Notes under the pieces: generated by a model
The model's input: the letters and a program-made list of their open reading frames with translations, nothing else
The model's database searches: none
What the model was told of the DNA's origin: nothing
Assembly: GCF_024223415.1 (NCBI RefSeq)
Contig: NZ_CP100500.1
DNA length: 64,000 bases
Origin: Escherichia coli
Lineage (GTDB): Bacteria; Pseudomonadota; Gammaproteobacteria; Enterobacterales; Enterobacteriaceae
Reading direction: 5' to 3' (one strand)
In this document: piece by piece, positions 664-4,391 of the stretch
Layout of the letters: each line of letters begins with the position of its first letter
Numbering within the stretch: position 1 is the first letter of the stretch
Made by a program: the position numbers and the translations under genes

Positions 664-692
664 AAGCCGACTTTAAGAGTCGGCTTTTTTTT
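664..692 (+). terminator. rho-independent terminator after upp
   Basis: stem agccgac/gtcggct with short loop followed by T8 run. Confidence 0.7.
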
Positions 693-732
693 GAGTAAAG
701 CGCCTATAACACATAATACAGAGGATAATACT

Positions 733-2022
733 ATGACGCGCCGTGCTATCGGGGTGAGTGAAAGACCGCCACTTTTACAGACAATCCCGCTTAGTTTGCA
801 ACATTTGTTCGCCATGTTTGGTGCAACCGTCCTGGTGCCCGTCTTATTTCATATTAACCCGGCGACTGTACTGTTATTTAACGGTATTGGAACGCTGCTG
901 TATCTCTTCATCTGTAAAGGGAAAATTCCGGCTTATCTTGGTTCCAGCTTTGCCTTTATTTCACCGGTATTGTTACTGTTGCCGTTAGGGTATGAAGTCG
1001 CGCTGGGCGGCTTTATTATGTGCGGCGTGCTGTTCTGCCTGGTTTCTTTTATCGTGAAGAAAGCGGGGACCGGCTGGCTGGACGTGCTGTTTCCACCTGC
1101 GGCAATGGGCGCAATCATTGCCGTCATCGGTCTGGAGCTGGCGGGCGTAGCTGCCGGTATGGCGGGTTTACTCCCGGCTGAAGGGCAAACGCCAGACTCC
1201 AAAACCATCATCATCTCTATTACCACCCTGGCGGTCACGGTTTTAGGTTCCGTGCTGTTTCGTGGTTTCCTGGCAATTATCCCGATTTTAATTGGCGTGC
1301 TGGTGGGGTACGCGCTCTCTTTCGCAATGGGAATTGTCGATACCACGCCGATTATTAATGCTCACTGGTTTGCGCTGCCAACCCTCTATACGCCGCGCTT
1401 CGAGTGGTTTGCCATTCTGACTATTCTGCCAGCGGCGTTAGTGGTTATTGCCGAACACGTAGGGCACCTGGTAGTAACGGCTAATATCGTCAAAAAAGAT
1501 CTGCTGCGCGATCCAGGTCTGCACCGTTCGATGTTTGCTAACGGCCTGTCGACCGTGATCTCCGGCTTCTTTGGCTCCACGCCAAACACCACCTACGGGG
1601 AAAACATTGGCGTGATGGCGATCACCCGTGTTTACAGTACCTGGGTTATCGGCGGGGCGGCGATTTTCGCTATCCTGCTTTCCTGCGTCGGTAAACTGGC
1701 TGCTGCTATCCAGATGATCCCATTGCCGGTGATGGGTGGTGTTTCGCTGCTGCTTTACGGTGTCATCGGTGCTTCTGGTATTCGTGTGTTGATCGAATCG
1801 AAAGTGGATTACAACAAAGCACAGAACCTGATCCTGACTTCCGTGATTTTGATCATCGGCGTCAGTGGCGCGAAGGTAAACATCGGCGCGGCGGAGTTGA
1901 AAGGTATGGCGCTGGCGACCATCGTCGGTATCGGCTTAAGTTTGATTTTCAAACTGATCAGTGTGCTGCGCCCTGAAGAAGTGGTGCTGGACGCAGAAGA
2001 CGCGGATATAACAGACAAATAA
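733..2022 (+). CDS. uraA: uracil:H+ symporter (NCS2 family)
   Basis: ORF track 691..2022; likely true start at the ATG encoding [10 protein letters not shown] (429 aa), polytopic membrane protein. Confidence 0.9.
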
Positions 2023-2116
2023 TGTACCGACCGGGCAGTGTTGCTGCCCGGTTCAAACATCATGGCATTCTGTGGTAAACTTCTCGCGATTTTGTGAAAT
2101 CCTGGTTGAGGTATCT

Positions 2117-2818
2117 CTGAACACACCGGCACAGCTCTCTTTGCCACTTTATCTTCCTGACGACGAAACCTTTGCAAGTTTCTGGCCGGGGGATAACTCC
2201 TCTTTACTGGCCGCGCTGCAAAACGTGCTGCGTCAGGAACATAGCGGTTACATCTATCTCTGGGCACGCGAAGGCGCGGGGCGCAGCCATCTGCTGCACG
2301 CGGCTTGCGCGGAATTGTCGCAGCGTGGCGATGCGGTGGGCTATGTCCCACTGGATAAACGCACCTGGTTTGTTCCGGAAGTGCTCGACGGTATGGAGCA
2401 TTTGTCGCTGGTCTGTATCGACAACATTGAGTGTATTGCAGGTGATGAGTTGTGGGAGATGGCGATTTTCGATCTCTACAATCGAATTCTGGAATCGGGC
2501 AAAACACGGTTGTTGATCACCGGTGATCGTCCACCGCGGCAGTTGAATCTGGGATTACCGGATCTCGCGTCGCGACTCGACTGGGGGCAGATCTACAAAT
2601 TGCAGCCACTTTCTGATGAAGATAAGTTGCAGGCGCTACAGTTACGCGCGCGTTTGCGTGGTTTTGAACTGCCGGAAGATGTGGGGCGTTTCTTGCTGAA
2701 GCGGCTCGACAGAGAAATGCGCACGCTATTTATGACGTTGGATCAGTTGGATCGTGCGTCGATTACCGCGCAACGTAAGCTGACCATTCCGTTTGTGAAA
2801 GAAATTCTGAAGTTGTAG
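2117..2818 (+). CDS. hda: DnaA regulatory inactivator Hda (AAA+)
   Basis: ORF 2072..2818 contains the Hda sequence; the N-terminus as I recall it (..[18 protein letters not shown]) begins at a CTG codon at 2117, so a non-AUG start is likely; start position uncertain. Confidence 0.8.
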
Positions 2819-2832
2819 ATAAGGTGTTTATT

Positions 2833-2908
2833 GTCGGATGCGGCGCGAACGCCTTATCCGAACTACGCGAAGTTAATCCATAGAATTCGTAGGCCGGATA
2901 AGACGTGG
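2833..2908. repeat. BIME: one complete REP/PU plus the left half of a second PU that is interrupted by the IS
   Basis: gtcggatgcggcgcgaacgccttatccgaactacg (complete PU) then cgtaggccggataagacg (half PU) directly abutting the IS. Confidence 0.75.
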
Positions 2909-3435
2909 CAATGAACTGCACCCCAAATGTTGGACATAATCTGACATCTGAAGGTGCAGTTTATGAAACATTCATTTGAAGTAAAACTTGCCGCTGTAAA
3001 TCATTACCTGGCCGGTCATGCAGGCATCATTTCTACGGCAAAACTCTTTCAACTTTCTCACACCAGCCTCTCACACTGGATTAATCTTTTTCTTCTTCAC
3101 GGTCCTCAGGCACTGGATTGCAGACACAAGCGTAGCTATTCTCCTGAAGATAAACTTTGCGTGGTTCTTTATGCTCTCGGGCATTCTGAGTCTCTACCCC
3201 GGGTAGCTGCCCGGTTTAACATTCCCAGCCACAACATGGTTAAAAACTGGATAAAAGGCTACCGCAAATCTGGTAATGAGGCCTTTATCAGGCGCAGGAA
3301 GGAGAAAAGCATGACCCGTTCTGATGATACCCATGAAAACGAGGCAAACATGACGCCGGAAGAGATGAAGAATGAGCTGCGTTATCTTCGCGCAGAAAAT
3401 GCATATCTGAAAGCCATGCAGGAGCATCTCCTGGA

Positions 3436-3442
3436 AAAAAAG
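3436..3442 (+). other. programmed -1 ribosomal frameshift heptamer A AAA AAG
   Basis: A7G run in the orfA zero frame where the orfB reading frame opens; canonical IS3-family frameshift motif. Confidence 0.7.
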
Positions 3443-4343
<901 letters not shown>

Positions 4344-4391
4344 GCAAGCGTCGCATCCGGCAATGTGCTTCAACTAGCGATGGCGCACATC

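Follow-up and report, generated by a model that had tools for sequence, protein, structure and literature searches.

The upp-uraA-hda locus

The window analyzed here is a 64,000-nucleotide stretch of an Escherichia coli contig (NZ_CP100500.1, assembly GCF_024223415.1), read 5' to 3' on one strand. Near its beginning it carries upp, uraA, and hda, and these neighbors are the same in strain SCU-316 and in MG1655. Of 5,426 complete E. coli genomes, 5,424 carry the segment from 1950 to 2900 at a single chromosomal site with 95 to 100% identity, and between 2016 and 2135 the window and MG1655 differ at a single base (2066), without indels. The long open reading frame (ORF) containing hda occupies 2072-2818 of the plus strand and has 248 codons, with its TAG stop at 2816-2818. 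An earlier note, made from the letters of this DNA alone, claimed that hda most likely initiates at a CTG codon 45 nt inside this ORF and that the ORF itself begins with ATG. The limits and strand of the ORF are as claimed, its first codon is GTG rather than ATG, and an in-frame CTG does lie exactly 45 nt 3' of 2072, at 2117-2119. The features of the locus are as follows.

2020..2022, plus strand: uraA stop codon TAA, ending the ORF 691..2022; uraA is annotated in SCU-316 and MG1655
2031..2051, plus strand: GC-rich hairpin CCGGGCAG-tgttg-CTGCCCGG, the upp-uraA terminator (RNA fold, conservation, published 3' end)
2052..2057, plus strand: -35-like hexamer TTCAAA, putative part of the hda promoter (conservation of TTC, 18-nt spacing to the -10)
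2072..2074, plus strand: GTG, the originally annotated, unused hda start (sequence; overlaps the TG of the extended -10)
2073..2081, plus strand: extended -10 TGgTAAACT, with TG at 2073-2074 and the hexamer at 2076-2081 (conservation)
2088, plus strand: transcription start site (TSS) of the hda-only mRNA, giving a 29-nt leader (SMRT-Cappable-seq)
2108..2112, plus strand: Shine-Dalgarno (SD) sequence GAGGT (conservation, anti-SD duplex energy)
2117..2119, plus strand: CTG start codon of hda, decoded as fMet (annotation, literature, Met in 5X06, invariance)
2117..2818, plus strand: hda coding sequence, 233 amino acids plus the TAG stop, DnaA inactivator Hda (profiles, identity to 5X06, periodicity)
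2132..2149, plus strand: beta-clamp-binding motif QLSLPL, residues 6-11 (translation; same numbering in PMC5397184)

The earlier note also set a hairpin and the uraA stop 70 to 90 nt upstream. That distance is about right for the hairpin, which is present with a predicted RNA fold, spans 2031..2051 instead of 2031..2050, and lies 66 to 86 nt 5' of the CTG. It is wrong for the uraA stop, which lies 95 to 97 nt 5' of the CTG and 50 to 52 nt 5' of the GTG at 2072.

On the other side of hda, between this gene and arsC, there is a 1,432-bp element of the IS3 family at 2912-4343 (flanks 2819-2911 and 4344-4391), which is annotated elsewhere as IS1397. The element interrupts a REP palindromic unit in its central loop, between GCCGGATAAGACGTGGCAA and GCGTCGCATCCGGC, with a 4-bp duplication, GCAA; IS1397 is known to prefer REP loops as its target. 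MG1655 and SCU-316, the latter being otherwise identical to the window here, have no insertion at this site.

Identity and annotated start of Hda

Against the Hda equivalog profiles of NCBIfam, the long ORF scores 476.6 bits with NF005982 (curated cutoff, 268) and 281.4 bits with TIGR03420 (curated cutoff, 194.8), and the two matches begin at residues 14 and 21 of the long ORF, respectively, not at residue 1. From the CTG at 2117 onward, the protein is 100% identical to residues 21-253 of chain E of PDB 5X06, a construct in which a leader of 20 residues precedes a Met at the position of the CTG. Alignment with the known Hda N-terminus, the check that the earlier note had called for, thus places the beginning of Hda (M-NTPAQ) in 5X06 at the CTG codon and bears out its statement that the conserved N-terminus lines up with 2117. 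The clamp motif (searched for as QL[SD]LPL near the N-terminus) is present as QLSLPL at residues 6-11 when numbering starts at the CTG, and the paper on the Hda-clamp crystal structure gives it as 6-QLSLPL-11 and describes its contacts with the clamp (PMC5397184). All 14 residue numbers from that paper that were checked fit a numbering in which the CTG is residue 1. In this numbering the residues of the AAA+ core are in place, including the Box VII arginine finger Arg153 and the nucleotide-binding residues Gly55, Arg56, and Ser57. Judging from its identity to the characterized K-12 protein, the product would be expected to have RIDA activity, the stimulation of clamp-dependent hydrolysis of DnaA-ATP.

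Current annotation puts the start at the same codon. In SCU-316, identical to the window here, PGAP places hda at 2668-3369 of the locus, which corresponds to 2117-2818 of the window, and in the MG1655 record hda (b2496) has a length of 702 nt and encodes the same 233-residue protein. The K-12 gene (b2496, NP_416991.2) is the same gene with the same coding limits and a documented CTG start, and no difference between it and the window bears on the start codon. Su'etsugu and coworkers reportedly determined the N-terminus of native Hda in 2008. EcoGene 3.0 lists the CTG as experimentally shown and cites Su'etsugu et al. 2008 (J Biol Chem 283:36118). EcoGene 3.0 was the sole relevant paper on a CUG or CTG start of hda that we found in the open literature; no hda-specific ribosome-profiling or N-terminomics data were found in the literature searched, and hda is absent from the main texts of the Ribo-RET preprint and of the TRAINSPOTTER paper.

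The gene was originally annotated from the GTG at 2072, and a start there would make a protein of 248 amino acids, in which the CTG at 2117 is an internal leucine codon. This is the choice that the mechanical longest-ORF rule makes. A His-tagged protein built on the GUG complements a delta-hda strain, and the window, MG1655, and Escherichia albertii all have the GTG in frame. Current annotation and literature reject this start, and the comparative, ribosome-binding, and transcript data below bear on the same choice.

Conservation of the CTG codon in Enterobacteriaceae

We compared the hda loci of 80 species, the best 80 of 413 matches, all of them Enterobacteriaceae, from genera including Escherichia, Salmonella, Citrobacter, Klebsiella, Enterobacter, Kluyvera, Kosakonia, Buttiauxella, and Shimwellia. 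Throughout this section and the following ones, the 81 sequences are those of these best 80 of 413 matches. The codon aligned to 2117 is CTG in 80/80 species and in 81/81 sequences (best 80 of 413). How strict is this conservation compared with that of ordinary leucine codons? There are 31 columns in the 81 sequences (best 80 of 413) in which every residue is leucine; codon 1 alone is codon-invariant, and each of the other 30 columns uses 3 to 6 synonymous codons. Over all amino-acid-invariant degenerate columns of the same 81 sequences, 3 of 163 are codon-invariant. The CTG, unlike every other all-leucine position among these best 80 of 413, is therefore under a constraint at the nucleotide level beyond the need to encode leucine, which argues against its being an internal codon of the 248-residue protein.

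The two sides of the CTG also evolve differently. The third-position periodicity of substitutions starts at 2117 (81 sequences, best 80 of 413 matches), and codons 2-8 of hda show conservation of the coding type in the same alignment. In the stretch from 2072 to 2117 of this alignment (best 80 of 413), there are indels of 1 to 3 nt and no codon periodicity, and in most relatives indels shift the frame or stops interrupt it, all of which speaks against translation from the GTG. In about half of the species (best 80 of 413), the frame upstream of the CTG reaches a stop before any ATG, GTG, or TTG; this stop lies 15 to 45 nt from the CTG and often 15 to 21 nt. With an in-frame stop and no upstream canonical start, the CTG is the sole route to a protein bearing the clamp motif in those genomes.

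The relatives with a broken frame include a near one, a genome labeled E. coli (strain SCPM-O-B-8794, a GTDB species representative). Its locus (L004) carries a 1-nt insertion at 1480-1500, aligned to 2096-2116 of the window (GAAATCCCTGG versus GAAATCCTGG), which throws the GTG aligned to 2072 out of frame. A 41-nt probe with this insertion has 0 matches among the complete E. coli RefSeq genomes, a point in favor of the GTG as far as E. coli is concerned; we therefore claim no polymorphism within E. coli, and the strain probably represents a divergent Escherichia lineage.

Ribosome-binding context

The GAGGT at 2108-2112 is 100% conserved in the 81 sequences (best 80 of 413 matches), and a spacer of 4 nt, or of 5 nt in one species of these best 80 of 413, separates it from the CTG. 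The predicted energies of the duplex with the anti-SD sequence separate the candidate starts as follows.

CTG 2117: -6.9 kcal/mol, among the best 3.3% of window positions
GTG 2072: -1.5 kcal/mol, with 67% of positions at least as good
TTG 2141 (codon 9): -1.7 kcal/mol
GTG 2225 (codon 37): -1.5 kcal/mol

The GTG at 2072 thus has no SD sequence, which also counts against its use.

Promoter and transcription start of hda

If the 45 nt upstream of the CTG are not coding, what are they? Seven positions in this stretch, T2073, G2074, T2076, A2077, A2079, C2080, and T2081, are 100% conserved in the 81 sequences (best 80 of 413) and A2078 is 88% conserved, in surroundings that are otherwise variable. 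Together they form the extended -10 TGgTAAACT, which accounts for the conserved bases of the GTG at 2072. The TTC at 2052-2054 is conserved at 99 to 100% in the same 81 sequences (best 80 of 413), and the hexamer to which it belongs, TTCAAA (2052..2057), is the putative -35 of hda. A consensus promoter scan did not call the hda promoter, which has 8/12 hexamer matches plus the extended TG.

From the conserved boxes, the TSS was predicted to lie near 2088, at about 2618804 in MG1655. We found no relevant paper on the hda promoter or TSS in our literature search; Supplementary Data 2 of the SMRT-Cappable-seq study lists an hda-only operon (b2496) with its TSS at 2618805 on the reverse strand of NC_000913.3 (PMC6131387). 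Mapped base by base, this position is G2088 of the window, 7 nt 3' of the -10 hexamer. The measurement comes from K-12, and the window strain has no indels relative to MG1655 in this region. The GTG at 2072 is 16 nt upstream of this TSS, so the hda-specific mRNA does not contain it. The GTG is part of the promoter, and the 45 nt upstream of the CTG are promoter DNA.

The only ATG near the old start, at 2062-2064, opens an out-of-frame ORF of 11 codons (2062-2097, ATG GCA TTC TGT GGT AAA CTT CTC GCG ATT TTG TGA) that spans the promoter and the TSS. The columns of this ATG show 40 to 70% identity in the alignment (best 80 of 413) and are not conserved, and the ORF is most likely meaningless.

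A leaky terminator between uraA and hda

The hairpin after uraA is conserved in 30 species, and 3 of its 8 pairs show compensatory changes on both sides. The 3' end of the upp-uraA transcript is at 2618838 of NC_000913.3 in the SMRT-Cappable-seq data (PMC6131387), which is position 2055 of the window, 4 nt past the hairpin stem. The position of this 3' end just past the hairpin indicates that the hairpin acts as the uraA terminator. A simple terminator scan did not call it, its T-tract being weak. The hairpin is followed by almost no T-tract, the next sequence being TTCAAACA, and the -35 hexamer directly abuts it, so that both elements, terminator and promoter, fit within about 60 nt.

The same list contains a read-through transcript of upp, uraA, and hda (b2498-b2497-b2496). 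Reads pass the uraA termination site in 95 of 260 cases in one condition and in 8 of 214 in the other, and in the condition with 260 reads, the 95 that pass compare with 37 that stop at the site (PMC6131387). The uraA hairpin is thus a leaky terminator, which feeds read-through into hda.

Other starts weighed against the CTG

The read-through RNA is the basis of the alternative that survives best, in which the CUG is the main start for the 233-residue protein and a little of the 248-residue form is made from the GTG at 2072 in those E. coli strains that have an open frame and produce read-through. In E. coli the GTG is in frame and is present on this minority of RNAs, and as a start codon GTG is intrinsically superior to CTG. 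The lack of an SD sequence weighs against dual initiation as it does against the GTG by itself; on the read-through RNA, the region of the GTG lies after the stable hairpin, and outside Escherichia the 248-residue extension is not conserved as coding sequence (best 80 of 413). We found no evidence of a long, 248-residue Hda isoform in the literature searched. Such dual initiation seems very improbable.

Initiation at the GTG as the sole start fares a little worse still and deserves hardly any credence: it is largely refuted by the missing SD sequence, the position of the TSS, the indels, the absence of third-position periodicity upstream of 2117, the invariance of the CTG, and the annotation. 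A start further downstream, at TTG 2141 or GTG 2225, both of them canonical bacterial start codons and in frame, has practically no chance of being right, as neither has an SD sequence (see the energies above), either would truncate or delete the clamp-binding QLSLPL, codon 9 is TTG in only 43/81 sequences (best 80 of 413), codons 2-8 are conserved in coding fashion, and the N-terminus used and numbered in the structural work (5X06, PMC5397184) excludes them.

Translation of hda therefore almost certainly begins at the CUG at 2117, from its own promoter and SD sequence, and yields a product of 233 amino acids. RefSeq/PGAP and MG1655 annotation, EcoGene 3.0, and our comparative and transcript-end analyses concur on the start that the earlier note had favored. 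This start is not novel, having been published in 2008 and being part of RefSeq and standard annotation already. The scan rederived a textbook detail of annotation from raw sequence, which carries little weight as a discovery and makes a useful positive control, since the conserved N-terminus and the context gave the correct answer. Gene calling by the longest ORF is wrong at hda: it makes the protein 15 codons too long, and the extension is promoter DNA.

A possible role for a weak start codon

Taken together, these features suggest the following order of events. RNA polymerase starts at 2088 from the extended -10 promoter, directly beside the uraA terminator, and the hairpin at 2031-2051 stops most upp-uraA transcripts at 2055. 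The strong GAGGU, four nt upstream, would position the 30S subunit at the CUG at 2117, and the initiator tRNA would read this near-cognate codon as fMet. The predicted product is the 233-residue Hda with the clamp-binding QLSLPL at residues 6-11, which, on the DNA-loaded beta clamp, would stimulate hydrolysis of DnaA-ATP, that is, the regulatory inactivation of DnaA.

Why would such a gene keep a poor start codon? CUG is a very inefficient start, and the initiation factor IF3 discriminates against it. In the 81 sequences (best 80 of 413) the CTG is never replaced by ATG or GTG, nor by TTG, which is synonymous and a stronger start. Such strict conservation beside a strong SD sequence suggests selection for low output of Hda. 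We regard it as an even call whether selection maintains the CUG as a deliberately weak start that keeps Hda at a low dose. The codon may serve such a dosage or regulatory purpose, an idea that the discoverers of the CUG start may have put forward already. If this is true, the synthesis of Hda, and hence the balance of DnaA-ATP and DnaA-ADP, might respond to IF3 activity or to growth state. The invariance of the CTG, the SD sequence, and the extended -10 across 80 species (best 80 of 413) may be of interest to specialists in replication control.

Comparison with other genes that use rare start codons

According to EcoGene 3.0, yfjD, which is unrelated to hda, is the second E. coli K-12 gene reported with a CTG start. 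Its start was predicted from conservation and the ribosome-binding site and then confirmed by mutagenesis of the start codon, and our analysis of hda follows the same logic of conservation and ribosome-binding site.

Another parallel may be infC, the gene for IF3. Its AUU start is used for autoregulation, and the regulatory role of this odd codon is established, whereas that of the hda CUG is read from its invariance. Like hda, infC is a gene of an essential process with a poor, noncanonical start beside a good SD sequence. Given that IF3 discriminates against such codons, both infC and hda should be sensitive to the level of IF3.
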